Origin: an uncultured Lachnospiraceae bacterium
GTDB lineage: Bacteria; Bacillota; Clostridia; Lachnospirales; Lachnospiraceae
Assembly (NCBI GenBank): GCA_947168155.1
Contig: CAMVKW010000006.1
Span: 10,313-74,312, forward strand
Reading direction: 5' to 3'
Length of the DNA: 64,000 bases
How positions within the stretch are numbered: position 1 is the first letter of the stretch; the number at the start of each line of letters is the position of its first letter. A model generated the notes under the pieces. The model saw only the letters and a list, made by a program, of their open reading frames with translations. It did not search any database and had not been told where the DNA came from. Of the stretch, positions 15,581 to 55,463 are shown piece by piece. The translations under genes were made by a program, and so were the position numbers.

Positions 15581-15582
15581 TC

Positions 15583-16599: not shown

Positions 16600-16935
16600 A
16601 TGTTTAGAGCAGTAAATGAGTACATGGCAAAACTTAACATCGTTACTGACGATGGCATTCAGAGTGCTATGAGTACTTTCCTGGAGAAATCCAAGAAGGT
16701 TGAGAGTTTCTGCATTAATATCAATTACAATCGCTACATAGTTGATATTAAAATGAAGAAATATACTGTTGGAGCCGCTGATCAATTATTCAGAAAATTC
16801 GTAGAGGCTACTGCCTATCCTTATTCTCACATTTCCGTACGATACAACGAGGAAAATAGAGTACGATATAGATACTCCACATGTCAGGAGAACAAGACTG
16901 GAGTATATATGGATATAATTATCTCCCAGTCATAG
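16600..16935 (+). CDS. Hypothetical small protein
   Basis: The ORF is open from 16576. ATG 16600 is preceded by GGGGCAGGA. I recognise no motif. It ends 12 nt before hisZ, and a TATAAT-type promoter lies at about 16515-16550. Confidence 0.4.
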   Translation: MFRAVNEYMAKLNIVTDDGIQSAMSTFLEKSKKVESFCININYNRYIVDIKMKKYTVGAADQLFRKFVEATAYPYSHISVRYNEENRVRYRYSTCQENKTGVYMDIIISQS

Positions 16936-16947
16936 AAAGGATTCATT

Positions 16948-36216: not shown

Positions 36217-37227
36217 ATGAATAAAGAAGAAGCAAAAAAATTAATAGATACTAATTACCAGGGCATTCATAGTTCTAAAAATGTCACCCTGAATATTGAT
36301 GATGGTGTTCCGTTTATTCAGGTTGAGGGATTTTCAGATATGTCCTTTATCCAGCACGGCTTTACTACAAGGCTTGGTGGAGTCAGCAAAGGGATTTATG
36401 AGTCGCTGAATATGGGACTACATCTTGATGATGAAAAAGAAGATGTAATGGAGAACTATCAGAGACTTGGTGCCACAATGGGCTTTGACTATACTCGTAT
36501 GTCCGCTCCAAATCAGGTTCATAAGTCAAACATTCTGGTTGTTGAAGAAAAGGATGCTGGAGATGGCATTTCCAGAGATCTAAGCCATTTCGAAATTGAT
36601 GCTCAGATCACAAATGTAAAGAACATACCGCTTATTGTTTATACAGCTGATTGTGTGCCTATACTTCTGGCAGATCCTGTCAGCCGTGTAATTGGTACGG
36701 TTCATGCGGGATGGAGAGGTACTGTAGATGCCATTGCCGCTAAAACAGTTGAGAAGATGAGTGAGGTTTATGGCTGTCTGCCTGAAAATATCCACGCTAT
36801 AATAGGTCCTTCTATTGGTCCTGAGAATTATGAGGTGGATGAAACTGTTATTAAAGCAATGGTGGAATGTCCTTACCTTGATACAACTGAGGATAATGTT
36901 ACTTTTGAACCACTTCAGAATGATGATTTTAAATATATCATTCATTCCGGAAGTGTTTATAGAGAAGGAATGCCAGCTGAATATAAGGGTATAACACTTA
37001 CAAGACTGGGTGTTCCGTATGAGATATTCAGGACAGTAAAGATCAGGGACAGATATATGCTTAATCTCTGGAATCTGAACGAACTGATCCTTGTAAATGC
37101 TGGTCTTAAATCCAGAAATATTTACCAGACAAAACTTTGTACAATGAAATATCATGATATCTTCTTCTCTCATCGCTATACAAACGGTAGAAGAGGGCTA
37201 AATGCAGGTATTATAGTTATTAAATAA
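36217..37227 (+). CDS. pgeF: YfiH/PgeF family (DUF152) purine nucleoside phosphorylase / laccase-domain protein
   Basis: Carries QVHKSNI, TADCVPI and HAGWRGT motifs. At 336 aa it is longer than I recall for this family. Confidence 0.8.
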   Translation: MNKEEAKKLIDTNYQGIHSSKNVTLNIDDGVPFIQVEGFSDMSFIQHGFTTRLGGVSKGIYESLNMGLHLDDEKEDVMENYQRLGATMGFDYTRMSAPNQVHKSNILVVEEKDAGDGISRDLSHFEIDAQITNVKNIPLIVYTADCVPILLADPVSRVIGTVHAGWRGTVDAIAAKTVEKMSEVYGCLPENIHAIIGPSIGPENYEVDETVIKAMVECPYLDTTEDNVTFEPLQNDDFKYIIHSGSVYREGMPAEYKGITLTRLGVPYEIFRTVKIRDRYMLNLWNLNELILVNAGLKSRNIYQTKLCTMKYHDIFFSHRYTNGRRGLNAGIIVIK

Positions 37228-39675: not shown

Positions 39676-41613
39676 TTATTCAGTAATAATACCTTTTCGT
39701 ATATATTTTTCTCGTTTTACTTCGTACATACTTGTATCTGCATTCTTTACTGCCTTTGTTATATCAAAATCATCGTTCAGGATAGTTGTAATATAACCGC
39801 AGCTGGTAGATACATCATATGGTTTTCCGGACCCCTCGTTATATTTATCTAGATACTTATCTATATTTTTAATTATCTGATCAGGATCGCATTCGCCAAA
39901 GATAACTGAGAAAATCTCATCACCACCAAATCTTGCTGAAAGACTGTTTTCAGGAACGGAGTCCATTAGAGCTTTTGCGGTCGTAGCGATGGCATTATCT
40001 CCATCAGCATGTCCGAAATGGTCATTTATATATTTGAGTCCATCCAGGTCAGACATAATGACAGTGATTTCTTTGTTGTCATATTTATGTTTTTTACAAA
40101 TCTTCTTAAACTGGTTATGGAAGCCTATTCTGTTAAACAGACCTGTAAGTGGGTCATGCCTGTACATCTCATCCATCTTTTCAAGAAGAGTGCGTTGGTA
40201 CTGAATATTAACATATCCACCAATTGCCGTACCGATTGCATTTGTCGCATTTACTGTATTCGAATAGTTGGAGATGAAATAATCCCTGAAATAATAGCAG
40301 ACAAATCCAAAAGCTTTACCCATATAGTCCAGAGCATTGAAAATAAGTGGATAACCACTCTCTGTAAGCTGAAGGATTCTGTATCTGAAAGCGGGAGAGA
40401 GCACATCTTCTGTATATATATCATCATATTCAGGCTTTACAAATGTATCTGGTTTATAATCATCCTTAAAATCAGCATCAAAAATCTTTACAAGCTCTTT
40501 CTTGGAATTATCATTTTCAAGGTCTATGAAATAATTATCTTCCTCATTTTCAAACATTCGTTTATCAACAACTGTAAGCTGCTGGTCGGTTTTATAGCAA
40601 TCGAGATGAGAAACCATGGTTCCTATATTAGGACTGAGCTGCATGGCTGCAGTAACTCGTTTTAATACTCGGTTGTCATCATTATGTCTGGAAAAGCTTT
40701 CTCTGAACCAGTCAAGAAGTATCTGAGTGCTTTCTTTATGTTCCTTACAACCGCAGGATTCATTTGCAATGAATGTAGGTGTGATAAAGCGGTTATGTGT
40801 TTTTCCTTCCTTAATGGCCTCAAAAACAGCATCAGCAGATGCATCAGCAAGCTGAATGATATCACAGGAAGCAGATGTTATTTTAGGAGAAGTGAAGAAA
40901 ATCTCATCATAACCATCAAAGCCAGCTATTAAAATGTCATCTGGAATCTTATAACCTTTTTCCTTCAGCATTTCTGATACAGTAATTGCCATTACGTCAT
41001 TAGCGCATATAATAGCTTCTGGAAGCTCTGATCCTTCACATCTTTCGAAAAGCTCCTGCATGGCAATACGGCATGGATCTGACCAGAAATAGCCATAACT
41101 AAGCATACTGTCATTAAAATCTATATTGTTTTCTTCCAGAACCTTCTTGAATACTTTGATTCGGTTGTTTGAGAAATCATTATCAGGCTGACCAGCAATC
41201 ATATGTGGTCTTGTTACTTTATGATCCTCAATTATATGACGAACAACCTGCTCAAAGCCTTTTTCATAATCAAAATTAATGCAATAAGCGCCATCATAAT
41301 GTCCATCGGCGATTATAACTGGAACATTATTTTCATTAGAATGTTCGATAACATATTCTGAAATCTTATGACTTTTAATCTTTTCGTCCATGATTACAAC
41401 AGCGTCAATATAGTTATAAGGAATAAGCTTAAAAATATATTTTTCAGCTGCCTGTCTGTTTTCTTCCCAATAAATATCAGAATTTATTGCAAAAATAAGA
41501 AGAGAGTAGTCCTCGGCACGGAGCCTCTCATTCAACTTTACAATATATCCATGGATTTGGGGATCATATATGCGTGAAGTGCATAAAGCGACCAGTTTTT
41601 TGCCATTAATCAT
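39676..41613 (-). CDS. Diguanylate cyclase with N-terminal LacI-type (periplasmic-binding-protein-fold) sugar-binding domain and no HTH
   Basis: 645 aa with no TM helix or signal peptide. A PBP type I fold covers about aa 5-270, and a C-terminal GGDEF domain carries the active-site variant RFGGDEI. Confidence 0.85.
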   Translation of the reverse strand: MINGKKLVALCTSRIYDPQIHGYIVKLNERLRAEDYSLLIFAINSDIYWEENRQAAEKYIFKLIPYNYIDAVVIMDEKIKSHKISEYVIEHSNENNVPVIIADGHYDGAYCINFDYEKGFEQVVRHIIEDHKVTRPHMIAGQPDNDFSNNRIKVFKKVLEENNIDFNDSMLSYGYFWSDPCRIAMQELFERCEGSELPEAIICANDVMAITVSEMLKEKGYKIPDDILIAGFDGYDEIFFTSPKITSASCDIIQLADASADAVFEAIKEGKTHNRFITPTFIANESCGCKEHKESTQILLDWFRESFSRHNDDNRVLKRVTAAMQLSPNIGTMVSHLDCYKTDQQLTVVDKRMFENEEDNYFIDLENDNSKKELVKIFDADFKDDYKPDTFVKPEYDDIYTEDVLSPAFRYRILQLTESGYPLIFNALDYMGKAFGFVCYYFRDYFISNYSNTVNATNAIGTAIGGYVNIQYQRTLLEKMDEMYRHDPLTGLFNRIGFHNQFKKICKKHKYDNKEITVIMSDLDGLKYINDHFGHADGDNAIATTAKALMDSVPENSLSARFGGDEIFSVIFGECDPDQIIKNIDKYLDKYNEGSGKPYDVSTSCGYITTILNDDFDITKAVKNADTSMYEVKREKYIRKGIITE

Positions 41614-41735
41614 AGCACACCCCTTAATTTAAAAACCATCCAAAAAAATTATAACACATGTGTTGCGCTTTTGTTATACTTTCTATGATAAGATGTTAAA
41701 GAAATTATTGTAAATTTACATTTATGGAGGTTTAT

Positions 41736-42308
41736 ATGGATATCATACTATTAAATGAATGTGATAAAGATGTAAAGGATCTGTTTAACAGATTTGTACC
41801 AAAGGATTATCTTGGACTTTTGGAAGAGGAAACTACCATACTACTCGGGGCAATTGATACAAATGAGGATGGTAGTGAACCTATAGGAATAACCATTGTT
41901 TCAATAGATGATGGCTATTTTGTAATAAAATGGATGTGGATAGATCCAGAACTGAGACTACAGGGAGCAGGAGAAAAAATGCTGAAAACATGCTTTGATA
42001 TAGCATTAATGAATGAATTAAATACTATTTATGCGTATGTACCTGCTCTTGATACAAAAGATATTTCAGAAAGTGATATGGCGGAATTCTTCTATAATAA
42101 CACTTTTAATTATGTGGAGAACAGGGAAAAAGAAGGTGTGAAGTACTATGTTCTTTCAGCAAACACTGATATATATTCAAATATGGACAATGAAATGATG
42201 AATGAAACTGTTAATCAAAGTAGAATAGATAAAGCGTATAGTAAATTCCCTAATAATTTTGTTGAGAGGGAAGTAGAGTATTATAGCGGAGTTAAGATAG
42301 AGGAATAA
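41736..42308 (+). CDS. GNAT-like acetyltransferase-fold protein (hypothetical)
   Basis: The ORF is open from 41724, but that ATG lies inside the SD GGAGG, so I chose ATG 41736. The motif-A-like segment is WMWIDPELRLQGAGEKML. Confidence 0.5.
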   Translation: MDIILLNECDKDVKDLFNRFVPKDYLGLLEEETTILLGAIDTNEDGSEPIGITIVSIDDGYFVIKWMWIDPELRLQGAGEKMLKTCFDIALMNELNTIYAYVPALDTKDISESDMAEFFYNNTFNYVENREKEGVKYYVLSANTDIYSNMDNEMMNETVNQSRIDKAYSKFPNNFVEREVEYYSGVKIEE

Positions 42309-42321
42309 AGGAGAAAAAATT

Positions 42322-45300
42322 ATGGCACCAAAACAAAGAAATCAGAAACTTATCAGAGGAAGCTATGATAGGTTAAACGACGAACAGAAAAAAACAGCCG
42401 TGAAGTTAAACGGTGATTACTACATAGTTTATCCTCTGGAACTCCAGCCTAATCAGTTTAAGATGAGGGCAAACCTTACAAGTAAGAAAGATAGTGAGCT
42501 TATAAGGGATAGAAATGAGGCGAGAACTGCCTTAAGAGATGAGCTAACAATAAATGATTTTAAGCAGAATAATCTTAAAACAAGCCAGTTTATGCTGAAT
42601 GCCAGTGCACTTCTTGAGAAAGACTGGAGACTATTTAAGAAGGCGTCTCCTGAGATGCTATGGGTTAAAAAGAGTATTGCTGCCCTTAATAATGTTCTGG
42701 AGTCTGGATTTGGAAATTATATAAATGACCAGGGAATATTTGATGCAGAAGGCTATATAGAGAGAATTAATAAAGCTTATCAGGAATTCTTTGATGCTGC
42801 AGAAAACTACCTGAGTAGTAGAAAGCCTTCAAGTATAGCTGGAAAGAGAAGATATAGACGTGTGTCAGAGCTTCTAAATACTGCTAGACAGGCAAAAATT
42901 GATAATTATAACCTGTTCACCTCTATCAAGGATGGTGCGGTAGAGTTTGATAATATTACTCTTGAGAAGAAAAATAGCCTGAATGCCTATAATATAATAA
43001 CTGAAGTTAGTTCTTATGAGGCTGATCAGGAAACTGTTGTTTGGCAGAATGAGGGTAATTCCACAGATGTTTATAGATTGAGACTACAGGGAGATGATCA
43101 GAATTTCTATTATCTGAAAGAGAATCTTCCTTTCCTCAATTATAACCTTGAAGGCTTTATTACACGTCGTTTGAGACAGCTTGCTGCAAGTAAGGCAAAT
43201 AGAGAGTCTGATCCTAGAAATGAAGAACAACGACTAAAGAAGATATCAAATAAGGATTATGAAAACGGCGAGAGATTTCTGAATGCTTTTAAAACAGCAT
43301 TAGATCAGGCAGGTGCTGCTAATAAACAAAAGGTTGCTGATAAGCTTGTAAAATATTTGGGACATGATTTTGATAAGATATTTAAGGATTTCGAATTATA
43401 TAATAAAGCAGCTGATTATCCCGCTGTTCAGGAAGAGAAATCGCTGGATGAGCTTATAGCTACTAGTCAGGGAATTGAGAAACAGGCATATCTTTTTAGA
43501 AAACAAATGCTTGAAGATGAGGGAAATTATATTCCAGGAGCTAAGGCAGCAGAAGTTATCCAGAAGACAAGTGCAGTTGACTGGTTGAAAAAGAGATTAA
43601 ATCTAAAAGATAATGAAGATGCTGTTTTACTAAATGCACTTCAAGGACTTTCTGATAAAGAGGTTGAAAATATATTCAGATATACCCTTGGTAAAGAAGT
43701 AGAACTCTACGGACAGATGAACGAGACAGTACAGCAGAAGGGCGAAGATAAGGTAGCTATTAATAATACAGCAACTGCCAGAGTGGCTGAGCACCTGGGA
43801 TTTGATGATGTTATTACGAAATCTAAGACTTCTCTGGTTAAGTTTAAGAGAAGAGATGGTACAGAGGTTAATCAATTATGTACTATCTGTGAAGAGGCTC
43901 CGGGAGATGAGTTTATAGACCTTATGAAACAGGCAGAACGAGACAATGTTAAGATAGTTTACTCTCCAGAAGCTATCAGAAATCTTATGCGTCTGCAGGC
44001 TATAGATACACTATGTTTCCAGAAAGATAGACATGGTCGAAACTTCAAGTGTTTAAATGAGAAGGATCCTGTAACTGGTAATATTATTATCAAGTCTATC
44101 AAAGCTTATGATAATGATATGTCTTTCGATGCTTGTTCCCTTGAAACAGGCTTTAAAGAAATGGAAGATGGTATACCTAGGGATCCACAAAGAAACCAGT
44201 TCCTTCCGGCTATGAATATGGTAATCAAGAAGGATTCAGCTCTATATAAACATGTGTTTGGAAATTATTTTGGTATTGACGTAATCAGTCCACCTAAAGA
44301 AATGGCGCCAGAACCAATGGTAAGATTTGGCAGAGCTCTAATAAATATTAAACCAGAGTATATTAATAGAGTATTGACATATACCTGGGATATGCATGAA
44401 TATAAAGTCAGTACGCCTGAAGAATTAAAGTGGAATTATGATATACGTGATATTAAGCTTAGAGAAGGACTTGATCCTAAGTTAAAAGAAGATATCATTA
44501 ATGAAATTAAGTCAGGAAAATATCCTGATGTTAAATATAATGAAAATGATATAAATGAATCTTTAGCTGATTATGCTGCGCATAAGTTTTCTGATTTATC
44601 AAATCAGATAAGAGATATTTGGTTTAATCCAAAACCTGTTCGTCTGCAAATGGCTGAAGAATATAATAAGAATCATCCGGATAAACATGCACATGAATCT
44701 CAGTACTATTATAAAAACAATCTAAGTCCGGCAGATAAGAAAAAACTAAACTCTTTAATGACGGAATTAAAGCAACTGCATAGTACATATAATTTTGATG
44801 AAGTTTATAATAGAGATATATCCTTAGTGGGAGCATATCCATTTTTGGATGCTTTTGTTAAAACATCTACATATGTATATGACCGAATGTATGGAGATAC
44901 TTTAGAGAACAGAGCACTCTATCAGGCAAAGGATGATGAAACATATAATGCTATTAAGAGTCTGATTAATAAAAATGGTGATCTGGAAATTCCTTCACTG
45001 CTTCATTATGACAATGAAGCATATGAGAGACTATGTCAGTCTATTCATGATTTTGAAGATCCAAATTCTGCAATAGTTAATAAGCTTAAGAAGATTGGTC
45101 TGAGCGACGAAAAGATAAATGCAATTGCTACGCGAAATAAAGAAATGAAGGCTAAGCTAGATAAGGCAAATATAAAAGCTCAGGCATTTTATAAGGCTGC
45201 CGGCTGGACAACACCTCCAAAGAATTCATTCTTTCTTAATAAAGAAGACTATAAAAATATTGAAAATCTTACAGATTTTGCTATAGATCCGGGTAATACA

Positions 45301-46143
45301 TATCTTGCAATAGATAATGAAAATTATCTGGCAGGACAGACCTTTAAAATGAAGGTTGGAAATGAGATAAAAAATGTTAAATATACGGAGCTAATGAATG
45401 AAAATGAGATTCTTAAGGCCCAGGATCACAACGAGTATATTAAAAATGATGAAAAGCGTTGGAAATATACAGCAGAAGAAAAGCAGAATAAGAAATATGA
45501 TGTAAGTAATACAGATGTAAAGCTTATAACAGTAATTGATGCTAAATACTATGTTAATGCATGTATTGATGATGCAATCTATAATGTGGCTCATAATGAT
45601 TTTGAAACAAAAGAAAAGCTTATAGAAGGCTTCAAAGAAATACTGTTTACACAAAGAATGCGTACAAATAAGCCATTGAATGTTGATTCTGTAAAACAAT
45701 TTATGGAAAAAGATTCAAATCTTAGAGCTGCATTTAATAATGAATTAAATAGCCCAGAAGGCAAAATATTCATGAAAAACTTAAATTCAATGCTTGAAAA
45801 TGAATTCAATAACCGTGGTTACAAGAAACTAACTGAAAAGAACTTAGAAAAGAGCAAAAAGAAAATCTTTGATAAATCATTAGATGACATCTTTGATAAG
45901 TTAAAAGCACCTGGTGCCGATAAAAATGCGATAGTAGAGGGTATGGCTAAGGATTGCAAGAATATGAAAGACTTTGCAAAGAAATTTGGTGTAGATATTG
46001 ATCCAGAGACAGCTTTGCAGCAGTTTATCCAGAATAATCCTGGTGTACTTACACAGGAACAGATAAACAAGATTATGAATGCAATAAAACCTCAGCAGGC
46101 TCAAGTAAATGTAAATAATAACGGACCAGCTATGAATCATTAA
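42322..46143 (+). CDS. 1273-aa hypothetical cytoplasmic protein with PI3/PI4-kinase/HipA-like catalytic-loop motifs
   Basis: The SD AAGGAGAAAA sits 13 nt after the GNAT-like gene. There is no signal peptide or TM helix. Motifs are DRHGRN (aa 569-574, nt 44026-44043) and YDND (aa 596-599), and the rest is K/N/E-rich helical sequence. The confidence applies to the CDS; the function is speculative. Confidence 0.85.
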   Translation: MAPKQRNQKLIRGSYDRLNDEQKKTAVKLNGDYYIVYPLELQPNQFKMRANLTSKKDSELIRDRNEARTALRDELTINDFKQNNLKTSQFMLNASALLEKDWRLFKKASPEMLWVKKSIAALNNVLESGFGNYINDQGIFDAEGYIERINKAYQEFFDAAENYLSSRKPSSIAGKRRYRRVSELLNTARQAKIDNYNLFTSIKDGAVEFDNITLEKKNSLNAYNIITEVSSYEADQETVVWQNEGNSTDVYRLRLQGDDQNFYYLKENLPFLNYNLEGFITRRLRQLAASKANRESDPRNEEQRLKKISNKDYENGERFLNAFKTALDQAGAANKQKVADKLVKYLGHDFDKIFKDFELYNKAADYPAVQEEKSLDELIATSQGIEKQAYLFRKQMLEDEGNYIPGAKAAEVIQKTSAVDWLKKRLNLKDNEDAVLLNALQGLSDKEVENIFRYTLGKEVELYGQMNETVQQKGEDKVAINNTATARVAEHLGFDDVITKSKTSLVKFKRRDGTEVNQLCTICEEAPGDEFIDLMKQAERDNVKIVYSPEAIRNLMRLQAIDTLCFQKDRHGRNFKCLNEKDPVTGNIIIKSIKAYDNDMSFDACSLETGFKEMEDGIPRDPQRNQFLPAMNMVIKKDSALYKHVFGNYFGIDVISPPKEMAPEPMVRFGRALINIKPEYINRVLTYTWDMHEYKVSTPEELKWNYDIRDIKLREGLDPKLKEDIINEIKSGKYPDVKYNENDINESLADYAAHKFSDLSNQIRDIWFNPKPVRLQMAEEYNKNHPDKHAHESQYYYKNNLSPADKKKLNSLMTELKQLHSTYNFDEVYNRDISLVGAYPFLDAFVKTSTYVYDRMYGDTLENRALYQAKDDETYNAIKSLINKNGDLEIPSLLHYDNEAYERLCQSIHDFEDPNSAIVNKLKKIGLSDEKINAIATRNKEMKAKLDKANIKAQAFYKAAGWTTPPKNSFFLNKEDYKNIENLTDFAIDPGNTYLAIDNENYLAGQTFKMKVGNEIKNVKYTELMNENEILKAQDHNEYIKNDEKRWKYTAEEKQNKKYDVSNTDVKLITVIDAKYYVNACIDDAIYNVAHNDFETKEKLIEGFKEILFTQRMRTNKPLNVDSVKQFMEKDSNLRAAFNNELNSPEGKIFMKNLNSMLENEFNNRGYKKLTEKNLEKSKKKIFDKSLDDIFDKLKAPGADKNAIVEGMAKDCKNMKDFAKKFGVDIDPETALQQFIQNNPGVLTQEQINKIMNAIKPQQAQVNVNNNGPAMNH

Positions 46144-46189
46144 ATTTAGTTTTAATTAAACTACCTGGAATTAAAACTAATAATATAAA

Positions 46190-46232
46190 AATAATACCAT
46201 GAGTTTGAAAAAACTTGTGGTATTATTTTTTG
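46190..46232 (+). terminator. Rho-independent terminator after the giant gene
   Basis: A 17-bp stem AATAATACCATGAGTTT/AAACTTGTGGTATTATT (with two G-U pairs) is followed by a T tract. Confidence 0.75.
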
Positions 46233-46295
46233 AAATAAAGAAAAAAACAAGGTATAAAAAAGTTAAAAAACGGCTAAAAATAAAGGAAAAAGGGG

Positions 46296-46324
46296 TTGAA
46301 AAGGGATAAGAATAGTGGTATACT
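46296..46324 (+). promoter_or_regulatory. Putative promoter of the recombinase gene
   Basis: TTGAAA, a 17-nt spacer, then an extended -10 TGG-TATACT. Confidence 0.45.
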
Positions 46325-46403
46325 ACAAATAGATATTTATTCGTGAAACCATAGTTTTGCGAAAATATGAGACCTGCAAATATACGAAAGAAGGGATAAA
46401 ACC

Positions 46404-47504
46404 ATGTCTGAATCCTACGCAAAACAACTTTCAAAAAAACAAATCCTTGAACTTAGATCTATCCTTTCAGATCTTCCTCCATATGTTAAAGACTTCATGC
46501 GTTCAATTGAAACTACAACCCAACCACGTACTCGCATAGCCTATGCACATGATATTAAATATTTCTTTGAATTTCTTCAATCAGAAAATCCTTTTTTAAA
46601 GAAAAAAGAAATGTATGAAATAACATACTCTGATATAGATAAACTCCAGGCTCGTGACATTGAGGAATATCTCGATTATTTGTCATATTATGTACGTAAT
46701 GGCCGTGAATATACCAATGATAACGCCTCAAAAAAGCGAAAACTCGTTGGTTTACGTGCTTTTTTCAAGTATTTATATATTAATGATTGCATCTCTCAAA
46801 ATGTCACAGAAAAGGTAAAAACCCCTAAAATTAAGGAAAAAGCCATTGTTCGTATGGAAGCTAATGAAACAGCTGATTTTCTTGATAATGTTGAATATGG
46901 AACCAATTTGACACAGCGTCAACAAAAGTTCCATGAACGTGATAAAACCCGTGATTTGGCCCTTTTAACCCTTATGTTAAGCACAGGACTTCGTGTTTCT
47001 GAGACTGTTGGACTTAATATAGATGATGTAGATTTTGATAATTCACGTGTAAAAGTCACCAGAAAAGGTGGAAATGAATCATTTGTTTACTTTTCTGACG
47101 AAGCAACTGGTTATATACAGGAATATCTTAAAGAAAGAGAAAAAATAGTCCCTGTAGATGGCCATGAGGATGCACTATTCCTCTCCTCTCACAGAAAACG
47201 TATATCTGTAAGGTCTGTTGAAAATATGGTTAAAAAGTACGCCAGAGTTACTACTCCTCTTAAAAATATAACTCCACATAAGCTTCGAAGCACTTATGGT
47301 ACAGCTCTTTATCAGGAAACAAGTGATATTTACCTTGTTGCAGATGTTCTTGGACATAAAGATGTTAATACAACTCGTAAACATTATGCAGATATTGATC
47401 AGGAAAGAAAACGTGGAGCCAGAAACAAGGTTACTCTACGTGAAAATGTTTCTAAAGACACATCTCTCGCTGAAAAATTTGCTCAAGATTCTGATGATGA
47501 ATAA
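46404..47504 (+). CDS. Tyrosine recombinase (XerC/XerD/integrase family)
   Basis: 366 aa with an N-terminal SAM-like core-binding domain and catalytic residues in GLRVSE (R), HKLRST (HxxR) and GHKDVNTTRKHY (H...Y). The C-terminal tail is acidic. Confidence 0.9.
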   Translation: MSESYAKQLSKKQILELRSILSDLPPYVKDFMRSIETTTQPRTRIAYAHDIKYFFEFLQSENPFLKKKEMYEITYSDIDKLQARDIEEYLDYLSYYVRNGREYTNDNASKKRKLVGLRAFFKYLYINDCISQNVTEKVKTPKIKEKAIVRMEANETADFLDNVEYGTNLTQRQQKFHERDKTRDLALLTLMLSTGLRVSETVGLNIDDVDFDNSRVKVTRKGGNESFVYFSDEATGYIQEYLKEREKIVPVDGHEDALFLSSHRKRISVRSVENMVKKYARVTTPLKNITPHKLRSTYGTALYQETSDIYLVADVLGHKDVNTTRKHYADIDQERKRGARNKVTLRENVSKDTSLAEKFAQDSDDE

Positions 47505-47579: not shown

Positions 47580-48968
47580 TTAATATCCTAAATCTTCGGC
47601 ACTAAGTGTATTAATGTGACTTCCATCAATTGCATTTATATATGTTACAGCAATTAATCTGCTTGTTGATCTTGTAGATATCTCCCAAGATGGTATGAGT
47701 TGCATTGTGCCATCATCTAGTGTAATTGGAACATATACGAATTGAACAGCATCGATAATGAGCGAGCCAGTATTATCACTTAATTCTTTTGGATCGATAT
47801 CTTGTGATGCTTCATTCACAAATGTATCCATTGCATCTTTAAAACTAAGTACACTGGTATTTTCTGTTACTCTCTCACCAAATACATAATTTGTAGATAC
47901 TCTGAAAGCAATGACTCCGGAATTGTTGAGATATACGTCTCCACCCTGAAGTACCATTGATTCAACATATGGAGTTCCCGTTCTTATATATTGGTTGCAT
48001 ATGGTATACATTACAGGAATGTCATACCCATCTCTTACTGCTCCTTCAAGAGTATCTGAATTCATTATATCGTCATTTAAATATACCAATTCATTCTTTT
48101 GCGGATCTTCTACATCAGGAATGCCGAGTGAATTTGCATTAGAATAAAATGATATAGATTCTGGTGGATAGTCAACATTCAGAAAATCTTTAAGAGTTTT
48201 AGATGTTGTGTTTATAAGCTCTTCATCTGAAAGAGTACATTTGTTTGGCCTGTCAGACATTACCTCATTAAGATTAACTGTGTGTAGCCCTGGATTATAA
48301 AGATAAACATTTCCATCACGATATGACATATAACAATCTTCTAGAGCAGGATCACCAACTATATCAGAATACTTTTTAGGGAAAAGCGCAACCGCCATTT
48401 GATTAAATTTACTGCAATATGATACTACTAATTGATAATCTAATCCGTTATATTTACCCTCATATGTATGTACATAGTATGAATCCTCATCTAGCCATGG
48501 GACAGCCTCGTGAACATGGACATTATCTGGATCTGAATTTGCCGAACAAATGGAATTTATAACATCAATTATACCTGAAGAATCTTCATCTTTATTTAGA
48601 AGGCTTTTATCTTCCGTTTTTATCGCTTTTCCAGTTTCTCCAAATATTTTCTTTACTATCTCGTTTTCTTTAACATCATCTTCTGTCATTAATTCTACGT
48701 TGTAAATACACAGACTATCTGTATCTTTAACAGTATAATTTACGTTCATTTCACATGCGGTATCTCCTAAATTGAAGGAGTTTGAATATGAAAGCTCTTT
48801 ACCACCCAGCATTTCGATGAGTGAATCACCTGTGTTAGCTTTTGCTTCGCTGGATTTGCCACTTGATTCCCCCGAACCATAATCCTCTACTTTTATATTT
48901 TTATTTCCGCATGCAGTAAGAAATAGAGATAATACTAAGATTAGACATAATAATTTCCTTTTTTTCAT
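47580..48968 (-). CDS. Lipoprotein, unknown function
   Basis: 462 aa with a signal peptide and lipobox LTAC. The SD AGGGAGAA lies upstream. Confidence 0.8.
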   Translation of the reverse strand: MKKRKLLCLILVLSLFLTACGNKNIKVEDYGSGESSGKSSEAKANTGDSLIEMLGGKELSYSNSFNLGDTACEMNVNYTVKDTDSLCIYNVELMTEDDVKENEIVKKIFGETGKAIKTEDKSLLNKDEDSSGIIDVINSICSANSDPDNVHVHEAVPWLDEDSYYVHTYEGKYNGLDYQLVVSYCSKFNQMAVALFPKKYSDIVGDPALEDCYMSYRDGNVYLYNPGLHTVNLNEVMSDRPNKCTLSDEELINTTSKTLKDFLNVDYPPESISFYSNANSLGIPDVEDPQKNELVYLNDDIMNSDTLEGAVRDGYDIPVMYTICNQYIRTGTPYVESMVLQGGDVYLNNSGVIAFRVSTNYVFGERVTENTSVLSFKDAMDTFVNEASQDIDPKELSDNTGSLIIDAVQFVYVPITLDDGTMQLIPSWEISTRSTSRLIAVTYINAIDGSHINTLSAEDLGY

Positions 48969-49032
48969 GATGTTCTCCCTTTTATTTAATACTTTAACCT
49001 TTTAAAATATTAATCTTTATCTTTATTAGAGA

Positions 49033-49494
49033 TTATTTCCTAATCATCTCGCCATTAAGCTGTAAATCTGTATCTTGCCCCATAAAGAAATTAGCCTGTG
49101 TCCATTTTGATGAAGCGGTGAATTTATCATTTGTATTATTGTATTTTAAAGTGATTGTGCTAGGCGTAAAAGCTATATCGCTCATTTCAAATGGCTCTGA
49201 TAAGGTGATTGTTACTATAGCATCAACCATATTATCATCTTCAGGACCGGCGGTGAATGACCACTTAATATCCTGAGTTGTTTTTGAAAGCGTCAGTGTT
49301 CCAGTCATATCATCCTTAAGAGTGAAATAAAAGTCATCCTTAATAGGATCCTCCCCCATATCCCAGGATGAAGCTGTCCAATCACCTACATAATCTTCTT
49401 TTTTTGCTTCGTATTTTTCACCGCAACCTGTTATAAATAAACAGCTTAGAATAACTAAACATGTCATTGTTGCTAATAGTTTAAATCTTTTCAT
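49033..49494 (-). CDS. Small lipoprotein, lipocalin-like (GxW) paralogue A
   Basis: 153 aa with lipobox ITGC and the motif VGDWTASSW. It is clearly paralogous to the next gene. Confidence 0.8.
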   Translation of the reverse strand: MKRFKLLATMTCLVILSCLFITGCGEKYEAKKEDYVGDWTASSWDMGEDPIKDDFYFTLKDDMTGTLTLSKTTQDIKWSFTAGPEDDNMVDAIVTITLSEPFEMSDIAFTPSTITLKYNNTNDKFTASSKWTQANFFMGQDTDLQLNGEMIRK

Positions 49495-49517
49495 ATGTGT
49501 AACTCCCCATATAATTA

Positions 49518-49985
49518 TTATTTTCGATCTAATGTTCCTGTTGTGTTGAATCTTGCTTCGCCTAAATCAGTCTGCTGTTTCCAATCTGTATCAAATGTAA
49601 AGTTTTTGTTTGTTTCATCGTACTTAAGATAGAAAGTTTTATTAGTCTCAATAGTAAGTGTACCAGTTGTTATATTTTCTGCTAATGTGAGTTTTGCTCT
49701 TGGTGGAATTGCAGGTGGAGTACCATCTTCATCGGTATACCAACCTGAGGTTTCCCATGTTATATCCTGACTTTTTTCACCTACGGTGAGTTTGCCAGTA
49801 TAGTCTTCATTTAGAACGAGTGTCATTTTGTCATCCCAAGGTTTATCTCCTACGTTCCATTCAGTAGTTTCCCATGTACCTGCAAAATCTTCTGGCTTTA
49901 TATTTCGTTCATCCTCACCACATCCGGCAAATACACCCAGACATAGTATAATTAAAACGGCTAAAATAGTAACTTTTTTAATCAT
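49518..49985 (-). CDS. Small lipoprotein, lipocalin-like (GxW) paralogue B
   Basis: Lipobox FAGC and motif AGTWETTEW. I chose the start at the second ATG (49985) because the first ATG lies inside the SD GGAGG. Confidence 0.78.
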   Translation of the reverse strand: MIKKVTILAVLIILCLGVFAGCGEDERNIKPEDFAGTWETTEWNVGDKPWDDKMTLVLNEDYTGKLTVGEKSQDITWETSGWYTDEDGTPPAIPPRAKLTLAENITTGTLTIETNKTFYLKYDETNKNFTFDTDWKQQTDLGEARFNTTGTLDRK

Positions 49986-51069
49986 TGATACCTCCATTTG
50001 TTTCTAAAATATCTACATTAACTCTATATGGAAGCTTGTTTTCTAATGAATAGCTCATCCTTTCAGGAACACCATTAAAAGAACAAGTTGTTCCTTCTGC
50101 GTTTTCAACTAAATAGCTCGCAGAACTACAATATGGCATATTCCTTGCTGTAATATCAGTAAACTCGGTATTTATAAATACATTTCCCTCTGTTGATCTG
50201 AGTTTTTCAAATGCTTCATCACTGAATGTGAGTTTTAGTTTATTATCATCCGGCGCGGAACCTTTAGTAAATTCAAAATCCAAAATCTGATCTTCGGTAA
50301 TTACAATGTTACCAGCTTCATCAATAATGCTTATTTTTCCGCTAGTATAGAACTGGTCATAGTTATATTCAGTAAGCATGTTTGAATTGCTTGTGCATTT
50401 AATCTTTCCATTTTCAGACTCGCATTTTAACTCGATTGGTATATTACCGCTGTCATCATTTTTATTCCATAGATCGGCTCTTTTTTCTAAAATAGAAATA
50501 ATATCTTTATAATCAGATTCGCTTATTTCGCCCTCTTCTGCTGATATTTCTACAATCATTCTGTTAGAAATAGATGTTTTATAAGCATCATAAACTAAGA
50601 AAATAATTAATATAGAAAAGATTACAGCTGTGATGATTGAAACAACCTTTAATACTTTCTTCTTATCTATTGGTTTTTTAATAACCTGTTCAGGTGTTTC
50701 ATCTGGTATTACGCCCCATGCAGCAACTGATTTATTCCTGTTATCCAGAGTTTCTTTAAGCAGTTCTGGTGTTAAACCAATTCTTTCAGCAGCGGCCTTA
50801 TAACCTTTTTGTGAAATCTTTGCAACAAGAACAATACATAAAGGCATGGCAAGAATCATTAATAAAGCAAGTACATATCCAATTACTCCGCCAATTACTC
50901 TAACAAAGATAATGGATAGAATAAATAAACCGATTTCTGAACCTAAATACAAAATCAATGCCAAATAAGCAAATTTACTTAGTTCGGAATTTAATTCGCG
51001 CAAGGATTCCTCAGTATAATTCTGACCATTAGGAATATGTTGCGGTACTATTTTCTTTCCTTTTTTCAT
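49978..51069 (-). CDS. Membrane protein, three predicted TM helices and a C-terminal extracytoplasmic domain
   Basis: 363 aa. Hydrophobic segments lie at about aa 33-55, 58-85 and 140-160. I recognise no motif. Confidence 0.75.
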   Translation of the reverse strand: MKKGKKIVPQHIPNGQNYTEESLRELNSELSKFAYLALILYLGSEIGLFILSIIFVRVIGGVIGYVLALLMILAMPLCIVLVAKISQKGYKAAAERIGLTPELLKETLDNRNKSVAAWGVIPDETPEQVIKKPIDKKKVLKVVSIITAVIFSILIIFLVYDAYKTSISNRMIVEISAEEGEISESDYKDIISILEKRADLWNKNDDSGNIPIELKCESENGKIKCTSNSNMLTEYNYDQFYTSGKISIIDEAGNIVITEDQILDFEFTKGSAPDDNKLKLTFSDEAFEKLRSTEGNVFINTEFTDITARNMPYCSSASYLVENAEGTTCSFNGVPERMSYSLENKLPYRVNVDILETNGGIND

Positions 51070-51085
51070 ATAATTACCTCGAAAA

Positions 51086-51400
51086 TCAGATGGCTTTATT
51101 CTTCTTTAGTTCTTTGTATTTTGAAATCGCCTCATTTAATAGTGGTGCCAGATCTGGCTCTATCTTTGTAAAACATCCAGCTGAATATATAACACCTCTA
51201 AGATCCTTTTCTGTATATTCTTTGTTTGGATCACTTGCAAAATCTATAAGAGATTTAGCGAAATCGTTATATTTTATTCCGTATTCTCCACCTTTAAATT
51301 TGTTTCCAACTACATCATTTACCTTTTGAAATAACTCTTCAGAAAACAGTTCTGAAGCCTTAATTTTAGGCATATCCTTCTTGCTACCAAATAATCCCAT
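51086..51400 (-). CDS. Hypothetical small soluble protein
   Basis: 104 aa with a good SD (GGAGGG). It starts 20 nt after the stop of the GGDEF-EAL gene. Confidence 0.6.
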   Translation of the reverse strand: MGLFGSKKDMPKIKASELFSEELFQKVNDVVGNKFKGGEYGIKYNDFAKSLIDFASDPNKEYTEKDLRGVIYSAGCFTKIEPDLAPLLNEAISKYKELKKNKAI

Positions 51401-51420
51401 ATGTTTGTCCCTCCATTTTT

Positions 51421-54400
51421 TTATAAATTATTCTTAGATATTCCCAGCATTACTATGACATATGCCGCCATCTTATTCACAGGATTATCCATCAGTTTAC
51501 GTGTCATGGTATGAAGTATTGCCCCATCCTCCAGCTTCTCATCAGAGAAGACAAACTGTCCGTCTTCTTTACACATTTTGACAGAATTATGAAAAGCAGT
51601 TCCAATCTCGTCTTTGATATCTGATACATTAACTGTCTGCCCCACCTGGATATGACCGGGATGTGATTCTACAAACTCACGATAAGCCTGATTACCTCTT
51701 ACTACCTTCGCAACGTTTCCGTCATATTCTACTACGAACATAGGCTGTGTATTAAAATACTGGTCGCTCAAGGTTTCATTATCGTCGAAATTTGCTCCGA
51801 GATTAGAGAGATTTATGTTGCTTACCATTCTGTTATAGCTGATCTCCGCAGGATCCTCAAATCCTATCTGCACTCCCTTGTCATACCTATCCAGTATCTT
51901 CGACATAGGAATCGGTTTGCAGAAATAGTAGCCCTGAACCTTTGTACAGCCTATTCCACCAAGAAACTCAAACTGCTGTGCAGTTTCAACACCCTCTGCC
52001 ACGGTTTCCGTGTCCAGGCTGGCAGCCATCCTCATAAGCTCGGTAAGAATGATTCTCGACTCAGGCTTCTCGTTGAACTTCCTCATAAAACGCATATCGA
52101 ACTTGATAAGATCAAAATGTATCTCCTGCAGAAGATCCAGGGATGAATATCCGCTTCCGAAATCATCCATCCAAACCTTAAAGCCCAGCTGCTGAAAACG
52201 TTCAATCTGTTCCTTCATAAATTCAAAATTCTCACCTATGATACTTTCCGTAATCTCTATGGTAAGAAGACATCTTGGAAGTCCGGCTGCGTCCACACGA
52301 TTGCATATCTCTTCTACTATGTCACATACCTCAAAGTCTGCTCTCGAGAGGTTTACCGACTGAGGAACAAGATGCAGTCCGGCACGTTTCTGGTTCTTCA
52401 GCTTTTCCAGAATGATATCCACCATCCTGAGATCAACCTTATAGATAAGCTTGCTTTCCTCAAGGATTGGAATAAATTCTGCCGGTGACAGCATTCCCAT
52501 TTCAGGATCTATCCACCTGGCCAGAGCCTCCTCATCACAGACCTTGCTGTTAATGACACGGACGATAGGCTGATAGTACGCTGTTATCCAGTTTTCATCT
52601 ATGGCACGGTCCAGATTGTTTATGACATACTGTCTTCTGACTTCCTTTTCCAGCATATCATTATCAAAATAGTTGAAGTAAGAGCTGTTATCATCCCTGT
52701 TCATATCGCAGGCATATTTTGCTCTGTCACAGGCCAGAGAACTTTCCACTATACCCATGGAATCCGGATATATTCCAGCTCTGACATTAAGGGTTTTTCC
52801 GTGATTTGCCCTCTTCATTTCCTTGAAAACATTTTTGATTTTTTTCTCAAGGCCTTCCATCTCTGCGAAAACCGCAAAATGATCCTGTCCGAAACGGCTG
52901 CTTCTGTCGGCTCCAAACTGGGACTCCAGAATATTACCCATACATTTGATCAGCACATTTCCTTCATTGAAACCATATTTTTTATCAAAGAATCTCAATC
53001 CACTGAGATTCAGAAATACTACGGCGGATTCTACCCCATTTTCATGCATGATCCTTCGGTCACGCTCGGCAATCCTGAAAAAGCTGCTCATGGTCAGAAG
53101 ACCCGTCAGATAATCTCTATCTATGTCCAAAAGCTCAGCCAGGTCTGTCTCAACATTTGCCGCTTTTTTTATATCCGTAAGACCTAATCTCTTAGAAACC
53201 AGCTCCTTCGGATTACTCTCATAGAAATGCCACTTGTCCTCATACATCCGCTTATCCGCTATACGAAGAGCCATGCGAATATCGCTGGACCTCTTCTCGA
53301 AGCATTCACCGATGGCAAAGAACAGGTTATTATACTCCTTACTGTACTCCCGGATTTTTTCCACCCGATTGTGAAGCTCCTCTTCGGAAACATCCAGCGC
53401 GATAACAGTAAACTCATCGCCTCCTGCACGGAATATCTCCCTCTCATCAAAAACTCTCCGAAGTACTTCCGCTGCATTTTTCAGAAGATGGTCTCCTGCC
53501 AGATGTCCCTGAGAATCATTTACCAGCTTAAGTCCGTTCATATCAATAAAAAGAACTGCCACAGAGGAATCCATATGTTTTTCTCCACTGCTAAGCATTT
53601 CCACATAATTATTCATTTCATTACGGTTCATGACTCCCGTCAGCATATCCTTGGAACTGAGGAGTCTGAGCCTGTCCAGAAGCATATAGTTACCCAGCTC
53701 TGAACCCAGGATAAATGTGGTCACCTCCAGAGTTTGCTTTATCAGAACACTTCTGGATGCATCGAAATTGATGGCCCACATGAAGCCCAGCAGCTTATTT
53801 CTGGATTTAAGCGGGAAGAGAACTATATTGTGCGCACCGGCACTTGTGAGAGACTCATACCAGATAGGATTCCGCTCTTTTATGAGCAGCATATCATGCT
53901 CATCCTTTGCGATGAGACAGTTGCTGCCTGCAATGGTAGATATCCAGGATTCCGCTATATCGTAGAAATCCTTATTTACATAGGTATCCATAGGAAGAAG
54001 CTTCGTTCCCTCAGAAAGCGCTTCTCCCAGTACATAACATGATCTGTCCATTTCATCCATTACCAGGATACAACAATGTTCGGCAGCACACATATCTCCG
54101 ATTCCTTTGATTATATCCTTCATGGTAGCTATGAAATCGTTTGTTCCGCTGAGTCTGATACATGTATTCAGAACAGAGGATGCTATATCACCTGATATAT
54201 TAGTCATAGGTTCAGAGTCGAATCCCTCACCAAATTCCATAATATAGAGACAATATCCAAGTTCCTCAGTATCTCCATTCAGCGGCATAAACATCATGTT
54301 AAACCATACGCCCGTGGCATCCAGATACACGTAGGAGTGCAGACACTTCTTCTCCACAGCCGCACGATAACAATAGTCCTCAAAATTCAGATTTCTCTCC

Positions 54401-54600
54401 AAAAAAGTGGTGTAATCCGAATTCGGAACAAACTTATCAAACTGTATATCCATATTCGGTGTTGGATGCTCTACTGAATCAATATATGCGTCATTTCCCG
54501 TAACGATCCTGAAGGTTCTTTTATCACCATCAAGTTTTTTTTCAACGGAAACAACACATGCCGTCGATGTAAACGCATTTACGATTGTTTTAAAATCCAT
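51421..54600 (-). CDS. Multidomain c-di-GMP turnover protein: sensor-like N-domain, GAF, GGDEF, degenerate GGDEF, EAL, sensor-like C-domain
   Basis: 1059 aa. GGDEF-1 is intact (RAGGDEF) and GGDEF-2 is degenerate (RFGQDHF). The EAL domain carries EALAR, EITES, DDFGSGYSSL, EGVET and QGYYFCKP. Confidence 0.9.
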   Translation of the reverse strand: MDFKTIVNAFTSTACVVSVEKKLDGDKRTFRIVTGNDAYIDSVEHPTPNMDIQFDKFVPNSDYTTFLERNLNFEDYCYRAAVEKKCLHSYVYLDATGVWFNMMFMPLNGDTEELGYCLYIMEFGEGFDSEPMTNISGDIASSVLNTCIRLSGTNDFIATMKDIIKGIGDMCAAEHCCILVMDEMDRSCYVLGEALSEGTKLLPMDTYVNKDFYDIAESWISTIAGSNCLIAKDEHDMLLIKERNPIWYESLTSAGAHNIVLFPLKSRNKLLGFMWAINFDASRSVLIKQTLEVTTFILGSELGNYMLLDRLRLLSSKDMLTGVMNRNEMNNYVEMLSSGEKHMDSSVAVLFIDMNGLKLVNDSQGHLAGDHLLKNAAEVLRRVFDEREIFRAGGDEFTVIALDVSEEELHNRVEKIREYSKEYNNLFFAIGECFEKRSSDIRMALRIADKRMYEDKWHFYESNPKELVSKRLGLTDIKKAANVETDLAELLDIDRDYLTGLLTMSSFFRIAERDRRIMHENGVESAVVFLNLSGLRFFDKKYGFNEGNVLIKCMGNILESQFGADRSSRFGQDHFAVFAEMEGLEKKIKNVFKEMKRANHGKTLNVRAGIYPDSMGIVESSLACDRAKYACDMNRDDNSSYFNYFDNDMLEKEVRRQYVINNLDRAIDENWITAYYQPIVRVINSKVCDEEALARWIDPEMGMLSPAEFIPILEESKLIYKVDLRMVDIILEKLKNQKRAGLHLVPQSVNLSRADFEVCDIVEEICNRVDAAGLPRCLLTIEITESIIGENFEFMKEQIERFQQLGFKVWMDDFGSGYSSLDLLQEIHFDLIKFDMRFMRKFNEKPESRIILTELMRMAASLDTETVAEGVETAQQFEFLGGIGCTKVQGYYFCKPIPMSKILDRYDKGVQIGFEDPAEISYNRMVSNINLSNLGANFDDNETLSDQYFNTQPMFVVEYDGNVAKVVRGNQAYREFVESHPGHIQVGQTVNVSDIKDEIGTAFHNSVKMCKEDGQFVFSDEKLEDGAILHTMTRKLMDNPVNKMAAYVIVMLGISKNNL

Positions 54601-54637
54601 ATTACCCTTCCTTTGATTCTAAAAAATAAGACTACAT

Positions 54638-55444: not shown

Positions 55445-55463
55445 CTTATTTATACCTTTATAG

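Follow-up and report, generated by a model that had tools for sequence, protein, structure and literature searches.

A hypervariable gene pair of rumen Lachnospiraceae couples a GNAT-fold protein to a giant protein with a predicted atypical kinase core

AAC(6')-Ie/APH(2'')-Ia combines a GNAT domain with a protein-kinase-like phosphotransferase, and both act on one substrate, the aminoglycosides. Its fused domains are compact, with ~480 amino acids (aa) in total, and its kinase is of the APH type with the Brenner motif HxDxxxxN. To our knowledge, no other functional coupling of a GNAT with such a kinase on one substrate is well known. Two further groups of enzymes lie close to the locus described here, namely the type II phosphatidylinositol 4-kinases (type II PI4K, PI4KII) and the HipA/HipT kinases (PF07804). 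The locus is a pair of genes in a stretch of 64,000 nucleotides (nt) from an uncultured Lachnospiraceae bacterium (contig CAMVKW010000006.1, positions 10,313 to 74,312); this whole stretch is called the window below, and positions are counted from its first letter. The first gene encodes a GNAT-fold protein (the partner), and the second encodes a protein of 1273 aa (the giant; 42322-46143, plus strand) with a predicted kinase core. The pair differs from AAC(6')-APH(2'') in its separate genes, in its PI4K/HipA-like kinase, and in an acetyl-CoA loop that is not universal among the partners. No APH match to the giant was found by Pfam, PDB sequence or Foldseek searches.

Sequence and structure comparisons place the giant as a putative atypical kinase of the PI4KII/CtkA/HipA neighbourhood, outside PF00454 and PF07804 by the thresholds of these families. 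The pair is obligate and forms a single evolutionary unit: the two genes stay together despite changes in gene order, co-diverge, and are replaced or recombined as a cassette at one constant site of the chromosome, beside the recombinase gene xerS. A first-pass annotation of the window, made by a model from the sequence, had known of no described system with this architecture. None emerged from family, structure or defence databases or from the literature, in which full-text searches turned up neither the family nor a kinase-plus-GNAT module of this kind.

The kinase core is recognized from a small set of residues. All peptide motifs of the first-pass annotation were found in place: MRLQAIDTLCFQKDRHGRNFKCL at aa 556-578 (nt 43987-44055), IKAYDNDMSF at aa 593-602 (nt 44098-44127), WQNEGNSTDVYRLRL at aa 241-255 and FYYLKEN at aa 262-268. 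In an alignment of 55 sequences, G245, N246, T248, V250, Y251, K266 and N268 are invariant, and so are E302, R304, G457-K-E-x-E-x-x-G-Q465, D562, Q567, D569-R-H-x-R-N574, K576 and Y596-D597-x-D599. The four residues singled out earlier for a conservation check (D569, H571, N574 and D597) are among them, and the invariant G-loop and K266 serve as the N-lobe that had been placed tentatively at aa 241-267. The invariant columns are exactly those that a kinase needs for phosphotransfer. In the insertion between the two lobes, E302, R304, GKEVELYGQ (457-465) and NNTAT (481-485) are conserved.

AlphaFold models support this reading of the alignment. The model of aa 1-720 has a mean predicted local distance difference test score (pLDDT) of 84.8 and a predicted template modelling score (pTM) of 0.78; that of aa 661-1273 has a pLDDT of 88. 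Strands of the N-lobe were modelled at 240-242, 250-255 and 262-267. The C-lobe was modelled with strands at 501-524, a helix at 549-564 that leads into the catalytic loop, and strands at 575-595 that end in YDND. When the kinase model was compared with the PDB by Foldseek, ranks 1-12 were all type II PI4K (PI4KIIalpha or PI4KIIbeta, probability 0.89-1.0). The kinase-fold core proposed from the motifs DRHxRN and YDxD was thus recovered by the structure prediction and search that had been suggested, with type II PI4K as the nearest fold. A few protein kinases, e.g. CLK1 and ULK2, rank lower, interspersed with unrelated folds. Among viral models (BFVD), matches were weak, and the sole credible ones were giant-virus Ser/Thr kinases. 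The C-terminal half (aa 661-1273) returned only noise from the PDB by Foldseek, such as helical repeats and 14-3-3 proteins (best E = 0.68, probability <=0.16).

Most of the giant is helical in the models. It is rich in lysine (10.8%), asparagine (9.5%) and glutamate (7.9%), and it has neither a transmembrane segment nor a signal peptide, because its highest Kyte-Doolittle mean over 19 residues is only 0.89. In all these respects, the composition, hydropathy and models agree with the earlier description of a K/N/E-rich protein that lacks a signal peptide or transmembrane segment and looks helical over most of its length.

Family databases capture little of this protein. Pfam and NCBIfam scans of the giant gave only noise and no match to a curated family, and neither the single sequence nor the 55-sequence profile found anything significant among PDB sequences. 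The window giant has no match to PF00454, and the scores of its distant relatives, 19.6-20.4 bits, fall short of the cut-off of 27.1. Pfam searches with ten distant relatives found no match in five, including two longer relatives, and a sub-threshold PI3_PI4_kinase match in three. A check for lanthipeptide synthetases of the LanM type, which combine a lipid-kinase-like dehydratase with a LanC cyclase and adjoin genes for a precursor peptide and a transporter, found no DUF4135 or LANC_like matches in the window giant or in 36 homologues and no such recurrent neighbours. Likewise, PADLOC-DB v2 had no match to the giant, the partner or four homologues; its only match was a weak one of PDC-M03A (E = 6e-4) to a paralogous 1331-aa protein of locus L001. 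The profile check proposed in the first-pass annotation therefore had a divided outcome, with no Pfam match for the giant itself and sub-threshold HipA_C and PI3_PI4_kinase matches in its homologues.

HipA_C is the most frequent of these Pfam matches. It aligns to the region of the catalytic loop in 12 of 37 homologues (best E = 1e-5), which would suit a divergent classical toxin-antitoxin system of the HipA/HipB or HipBST type. HipA and HipT share with the giant the pattern h-h-Q-x-h-x-x-L-x-x-x-x-D-x-H-x-x-N-F and a downstream Y-D, its catalytic loop aligns with D309-x-H-x-x-N314 (D309, H311 and N314) of HipA, and the order of a small upstream and a large downstream gene is that of antitoxin and toxin. 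However, the likeness stays below threshold in every test. The best homologue reaches 25.6 bits against a gathering cut-off of 30.5, the window giant has no HipA_C match, and hhalign places MRLQAIDTLCFQKDRHGRNF on MKFQVFQWLIGATDGHAKNF of E. coli HipA over 33 columns with a probability <7%. No HipA structure is among the 50 Foldseek matches listed. The giant has no HipA N-terminal or coupling domain and is three times the size of HipA, and Pfam found no helix-turn-helix HipB or HipS partner in either protein of the pair. The HipA likeness noted in the first-pass annotation thus holds for the catalytic-loop motif and fails as family membership. Membership is already largely refuted, and we consider a HipA-type system hardly tenable.

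In structure, type II PI4K resemble the giant more closely. They share a G-loop of the type G-x-S-x-x-[VY]-[YF] with an ATP lysine ~15-20 residues later, a D-R-x-x-x-N catalytic loop, an [I/Y]-D-N-[G/D] metal element and lobes interrupted by insertions. The ATP lysine of PI4KIIalpha is presumably K152. The spacing from G-loop to lysine in the giant resembles that of PI4KIIalpha, whose G-loop is given as 130-136 in PMC3974213, and the insertion between the lobes of the giant may be analogous in position to insertion I1 of PI4KIIalpha. There are clear differences. Type II PI4K are described in PMC3974213 as palmitoylated at CCPCC and integrally membrane-associated, whereas the giant has no CCPCC motif, no CC dipeptide anywhere and no hydrophobic segment. 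Its insertion is far larger (220 aa), it has ~900 further residues, and it is bacterial, soluble and accompanied by a GNAT partner; a phosphoinositide substrate is not implied. PMC3974213 names protein kinases (CtkA, Golgi casein kinase and actin-fragmin kinase) as the nearest structural analogues of PI4KII. The PI4KII likeness therefore indicates an atypical kinase and not a lipid substrate.

The same likeness raises a different idea, namely that the giant is a PI4KII-like phosphoinositide kinase that is exported and acts, like the lipid-kinase effectors of Legionella, on the phagosome or membrane traffic of rumen ciliates or fungi, with the GNAT-like protein as a chaperone or co-effector. 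Its best structural matches are eukaryotic enzymes, most record titles of its family point to ruminant-gut communities, which are rich in bacterivorous protozoa, neighbouring giants show faint HopA1, ABC1 and Fam20C matches, and the protein is large, hypervariable and K/N/E-rich. Nevertheless, we rate export against protozoa as very improbable. The giant lacks the signal peptide, the transmembrane segment and the palmitoylation motif, and no secretion-system genes recur nearby. All matches to effector families are far below threshold, and PI4KII-like folds are, according to PMC3974213, equally close to protein kinases.

The first-pass annotation had called the pair an orphan, a label that no longer applies. 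A word-index search found 54 homologues of the giant, none informatively named, from sources named Lachnospiraceae and Butyrivibrio. A profile search of 1.84 billion cluster representatives found 802 proteins with E <= 1e-3, and for 411 of them E is <= 1e-10. About 80 of the 802 are full-length relatives, and many others are proteins of ~550-700 aa that have the kinase core only. Each of D569, N574, D597 and D599 is kept in 228-234 of 237 core domains and in all 68 of the distant short forms of ~600 aa. The family signature is Q-x-D-R-[HN]-x-x-N ... [YIF]-D-x-D. Among GTDB species representatives, 47 loci were recovered, from Lachnospiraceae or a few unclassified metagenome-assembled genomes. 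Most carry ruminant-gut sample names, and six come from cultured isolates of the Hungate collection (Lachnospiraceae NE2001, AB2028 and LC2019; Butyrivibrio FCS014, Su6 and AE2015). Some genomes have two or three divergent copies. No homologues were found in 50,697 phage records, in 72,556 plasmids or in IMG/VR, and an exact-sequence look-up returned no record for the window giant.

Two of the distant core-only relatives of ~600 aa (L057 and L059) were viewed in their genomic contexts, which are quite different. One adjoins genes for a polyphosphate kinase and a pyrophosphatase in an organism with SLH proteins, and the other ends an operon of five unassigned genes that opens with a HATPase_c_2 protein. 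Neither has an adjacent GNAT gene.

The partner is, by profile comparison, a genuine GNAT fold. Pfam PF00583 (Acetyltransf_1) scores 23.5 bits on it against a cut-off of 20.7 and matches 19 of 20 partner family members, and nearly all PDB matches of the family profile are GNATs, so the GNAT-like reading of the upstream protein stands. Motif A (R75-L-Q-G78-A-G80, within IDPELRLQGAGEKML at nt 41940-41984) is intact, and the beta4-alpha3 region with R-x-x-G-x-G is as in the GNAT superfamily. What sets the partner apart from other GNATs is its giant partner gene and a private C-terminal tail, FP-x-x-F...VEY[F/Y]SG (aa 172-185, nt 42249-42290). It is also unlike the GNAT toxins that are paired with ribbon-helix-helix/DUF1778 antitoxins. 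Residues P22, W66, F124, P172 and E181 are invariant in the family. Partners of short-form giants are longer, ~320-400 aa, with an inserted second domain of ~130 aa. Motif A is conserved in most of the short-form partners; in several subfamilies it is degenerate (e.g. FREQSIATD), and these still keep the tail and the pairing. GNAT paralogues beside non-homologous giants have no such tail. From these patterns, we infer that what is conserved in the partner's role is tail-mediated binding to the giant, and acetyl transfer may be kept in some members, including that of the window.

Pairing was counted in 35 giants with at least 1.1 kb of sequence on both sides. A partner is adjacent in all 35, directly upstream on the same strand in 29 and downstream, divergent or convergent in six, which answers the earlier question of whether the GNAT-like gene always co-occurs. 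Every other gene family is limited to at most nine of 52 loci. Distances among partners and giants correlate (mirror-tree r = 0.76-0.92), and the N-terminal domain gives the highest values (0.88-0.92); the correlation discriminates poorly among regions of the giant, all of which fall in the range of 0.76-0.92.

A GNAT-kinase pair could be read as two enzymes that acetylate and phosphorylate one small molecule, lipid or envelope component, much as AAC(6')-APH(2'') treats aminoglycosides, with the helical domains as substrate-binding scaffolds. The window partner keeps its R-x-x-G-x-G loop and passes the Pfam threshold, the giant has a full kinase catalytic set in a fold closest to a lipid kinase, and some Butyrivibrio loci are near genes for a glycosyltransferase, GtrA and UDP-galactopyranose mutase. 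On the other hand, motif A is degenerate in several subfamilies that keep tail and pairing, and GNAT paralogues also pair with giants without a kinase core. No transporter, biosynthetic, resistance or secretion-system genes recur near the pair at the 52 loci. The ~900 extra residues and the within-species divergence of alleles (43-59% identity, see below) would be unusual for such enzymes, and PMC3974213 puts the PI4KII fold equally near to protein kinases and lipid kinases. A shared substrate for the two proteins is thus an unlikely explanation.

In a genome of the same species (L021), flanking proteins are 88-99.5% identical to those of the window, all but one at least 95%, whereas the partner is only 43% and the giant 59% identical. 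The nucleotide identity is 52-71% for 41700-45450 and 93-98% from 45450 through the end of the giant gene, the terminator and xerS. In another species (L010), the contrast is reversed: flanking proteins are mostly 60-89% identical (93% for xerS), the partner 77% and the giant 92%. Here the nucleotide identity is 76-86% up to 43500 and 94-99% beyond, and the upstream DNA cannot be aligned. In both comparisons, a breakpoint in identity lies at the left cassette edge, ~41658-41700. Two other genomes of the same species (L063 and L064) carry the allele of the window, at ~97-100% identity throughout.

Rates of synonymous substitution (dS) follow the same pattern. Against L010, dS is ~0.1 for giant aa 401-1273 and 0.87 or saturated for the flanks. 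Against L021, it is saturated for the cassette and 0.13-0.34 for three of four flanking genes, the fourth being a Cu-oxidase_4 gene (~1.0); for the giant tail (aa 1041-1273), which lies outside the hypervariable block, it is 0.11. These contrasts in identity and dS show that the cassette of promoter, partner and giant is a unit of recombinational exchange within and between species, with internal mosaic breakpoints. Of the horizontal acquisition proposed in the first-pass annotation, exchange by allelic or mosaic replacement is borne out, and the arguments from a neighbouring recombinase and from AT content are not (see below). A metagenome search anchored on the conserved xerS-proximal sequence gave one contig, with too little flank.

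The ratio of nonsynonymous to synonymous rates (dN/dS) is 0.15-0.27 in the cassette (0.18-0.23 for the partner) versus 0.02-0.08 in the flanks, and within the giant it is highest at aa 661-1040 (0.43 against L021). Both genes are therefore under purifying, somewhat relaxed selection. Such selection would fit a regulatory kinase outside any conflict, in which the giant is a scaffold kinase for endogenous substrates, the partner is its regulatory subunit, and variability comes from relaxed constraint and recombination near the replication terminus. The locus is stable, syntenic and always occupied in the clade of the window, no mobile-element or defence signatures were found, and the region has other recombination patches, such as the Cu-oxidase_4 gene and an indel at 49-55 kb. 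Even so, alleles at 43-59% amid a background of mostly 95-99%, together with an interspecies allele at 92%, are extreme for a housekeeping gene. The family is also patchy within part of one bacterial family, with 1-3 divergent copies per genome, and its contexts outside the clade of the window are completely different. We regard an endogenous regulatory role as improbable.

Some genomes contain islands of several pairs, each of a GNAT paralogue and a giant (L006 at 1109-4513 and 11353-17761, L005 at 12195-15953, and L001 at 372-17940). These island giants (796, 966, 1839 and 2523 aa, and others) have no sequence similarity to the kinase giant. The 1331-aa paralogue of L001 has two kinase cores of the same type. 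One island giant has a faint HopA1 match and another a weak ABC1 match, which are leads and not findings. In Pfam, the other giants matched only HopA1, Lipase_3 and EIIA-man, so faintly that we do not trust these matches, and hidden Markov models specific to regions of the kinase giant found only one match to the N-terminal domain and two proteins with kinase cores.

Among the possible functions, we lean towards a conflict module in which the kinase is the effector and is controlled by the GNAT partner, a reading that seems plausible to us although somewhat short of probable. A conflict function is preferred to a housekeeping one because of the hypervariable mosaic alleles, the divergent copies and the islands of GNAT-plus-giant pairs. 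Exchange as a block between strains and species is itself common for genes of biological conflicts. The giant would be an active ATP-dependent phosphotransferase whose helical domains choose the target, and the conserved helical domain at aa 801-1075, with the invariant residues P891, H895, R938, A953, F970, L972 and Y994, may hold a second ligand-binding or catalytic site. The partner would dock on the giant via the conserved tail and either restrain the kinase or co-modify the same target. In the subfamilies with a degenerate acetyl-CoA loop, its role cannot depend on acetyl transfer. Candidate conflict roles are a toxin/antidote module and an anti-invader module.

Several points weigh against a conflict function. 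The overall dN/dS is <1 everywhere and gives no direct signal of positive selection, and the structural matches to PI4KII are weak by absolute standards (E = 7e-3 to 5e-2, TM-score <0.3), the low TM-scores being due to the insertions in the core of the giant. Among the neighbours at the 52 loci, there is no recurrence of known genes for defence, restriction-modification or mobile elements, and no PADLOC match was obtained. The locus seems to be always occupied and syntenic in the clade of the window, whereas defence islands more typically show presence/absence polymorphism. Relaxed constraint and high recombination could by themselves produce hypervariable loci near the terminus, and the physical interaction of partner and giant is a putative one.

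A broader proposal is that the pair belongs to an unrecognised class of conflict modules in rumen Lachnospiraceae, in which a GNAT-fold partner is joined to a giant effector with an interchangeable core. Here the kinase would be a toxin or anti-invader effector held by the tail of the partner, which would often be pseudo-enzymatic and keep the kinase inactive until triggered. The interchangeable cores would include the PI4KII/HipA-like kinase, the doubled kinase core of one paralogue and perhaps ABC1- or HopA1-like cores in others. Taken together, this class and the role of the tail in it are tentative, and we think them rather doubtful as a whole.

The kind of kinase is itself known; what is new is its two-component, hypervariable and recombining architecture. 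The giant defines an uncurated atypical kinase family that is missing from Pfam, NCBIfam, PADLOC and PDB and that bridges, in bacteria, the PI4KII-like and HipA-like branches of the kinase superfamily. Strict coupling of the giant form to a GNAT-fold partner makes the pair a directly testable two-component system. If it is a true conflict system, it would represent a new logic of effector and regulator (kinase plus pseudo-GNAT) in an under-studied and agriculturally important microbiome. Should it instead prove to act as a kinase on lipids or the envelope, type II PI4-kinases would gain a rare relative in bacteria.

The two genes form a chromosomal operon: they have a promoter region of their own, are coupled in translation and end at a strong terminator (Table 1). 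Both open reading frames are on the plus strand, and that of the partner begins at 41724 or 41736. The ATG at 41736 is taken as the real start, because a GGAGG Shine-Dalgarno sequence lies 8 nt upstream of it and the homologues begin at the equivalent position; the product of 190 aa is that of the first-pass annotation. The annotated spacing of 13 nt and the Shine-Dalgarno sequence of each gene were likewise confirmed. Gaps of 11-13 nt recur at several distant homologous loci (L003, L005, L006, L007, L010, L039-41 and L047-48). A consensus scan found a promoter-like ATAACA-18-TATACT with a TG at 41651-41680, a match that is not above shuffle expectation. The hairpin annotated at 46190-46232 proved to be strong: it folds at -21.3 kcal/mol (z = -8.4), none of 200 shuffles equals it, and it is kept in L010 and L021. 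A simple consensus scan for terminators did not pick it up.

Table 1. Features of the partner-giant module and the adjoining recombinase gene, in window positions
Feature	Position	Strand	Details
Upstream region	41651-41735	+	Promoter-like site and GGAGG; left cassette edge ~41658-41700
GNAT-fold partner gene, 190 aa	41736-42308	+	GNAT domain aa 1-135, motif A, C-terminal tail
Intergenic spacer	42309-42321	+	13 nt; holds the AAGGAG Shine-Dalgarno sequence of the giant gene
Giant, N-terminal mostly helical domain (aa 1-228)	42322-43005	+	AlphaFold pLDDT mostly >90; no significant structural match
Giant, kinase N-lobe (aa 229-275)	43006-43146	+	G-loop and putative ATP-binding K266, then N268
G-loop G245-N-S-T-D-V-Y251	43054-43074	+	
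K266	43117-43119	+	
Giant, helical insertion of ~220 residues between kinase lobes (aa 276-495)	43147-43806	+	Alignment, AlphaFold
Giant, kinase C-lobe (aa 496-660)	43807-44301	+	Catalytic loop and metal-binding element
Catalytic loop D569-R-H-G-R-N574	44026-44043	+	
Metal-binding element Y596-D597-N-D599	44107-44118	+	
Giant, linker or middle region (aa 661-800)	44302-44721	+	Poorly conserved (conservation profile)
Giant, conserved C-terminal helical domain (aa 801-1075)	44722-45546	+	Alignment; AlphaFold pLDDT 88
Giant, clade-specific C-terminal tail (aa 1076-1273 and stop)	45547-46143	+	Only in the long-form subfamily
Rho-independent terminator	46187-46236	+	20-bp stem, 4-nt loop, U-run; stem 46187-46230
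XerS-like tyrosine recombinase gene, outside the module	46404-47504	+	NCBIfam XerS is the best Xer model

The surroundings of the module are ordinary chromosome, with genes for SMC, AlaRS, an RluD-like protein, Cu-oxidase_4, GH3, GGDEF and GGDEF-EAL proteins. In the closest genomes, the same site reads rluD, Cu-oxidase_4, variable genes, partner, giant and xerS. The first-pass annotation had taken the adjoining tyrosine recombinase as a sign of acquisition, a view that did not hold, since the recombinase is XerS-like and syntenic in related genomes, a marker of the terminus and not an island integrase. It scores 231 bits with NCBIfam XerS, under the cut-off of 267. Its gene lies at the maximum of the cumulative GC skew and at the switch of gene orientation from plus to minus; therefore, the window spans the replication terminus. 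An integrative island, or an integrative mobile element exploiting Xer recombination (IMEX), was considered and rejected: the recombinase gene is chromosomal and 99.5% identical in L021, where the cassette differs, and no att- or dif-like direct repeats were found at the cassette borders. The description of the module as AT-rich relative to its neighbours holds only marginally, with a GC content of 0.338 versus 0.375 for the window, and its GC at third codon positions (GC3) lies within the range of the neighbours.

Further observations concern the flanks of the module. Directly upstream, on the opposite strand, is a gene for a periplasmic-binding-protein-like/GGDEF protein (39676-41613), and a GGDEF-EAL gene at 51421-54600 forms the other cyclic-di-GMP flank. 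At 9 of 52 loci, a GGDEF gene lies close to the module, probably by coincidence, since such genes are widespread. The Cu-oxidase_4 (laccase-domain) gene at 36217-37227 is 88% identical to its L021 orthologue (dS ~1.0), whereas its neighbours are 95-99% identical, and it marks a second patch of recombination here, independent of the cassette. Downstream, a segment of ~6.4 kb (49003-55446) is absent from L062, L063 and L064 of the same species and 98-99% identical in L021; it is a strain-level indel near the terminus. Its genes encode two paralogous small lipoproteins, a 363-aa membrane protein and a 1059-aa GGDEF-EAL protein. The lipoprotein genes are in tandem (49033-49494 and 49518-49997), encode 153 and 159 aa with ~34% identity and no family match, and adjoin a DUF6034 lipoprotein gene (47580-48968).

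The region upstream of xerS is conserved and includes a promoter-like site at 46296-46324. An imperfect palindrome, ATTTATTCGTGAAAC-CATAG-TTTTGCGAAAATA, lies at 46335-46367 and is conserved in two other genomes. It is a candidate dif site, and its arrangement presumably resembles that of streptococcal difSL. Between this candidate and the start of xerS, L021 (14060-14248) and L010 (14067-14340) carry a GC-rich insert of 190-270 bp, which is absent from the window (equivalent position ~46393-46403). The insert is rich in short hairpins, such as GGGCGnnnGCCC and GGCAGCTTGCTGCC, contains the repeated GGCGATTG, and may represent a structured RNA or else a small repeat element.

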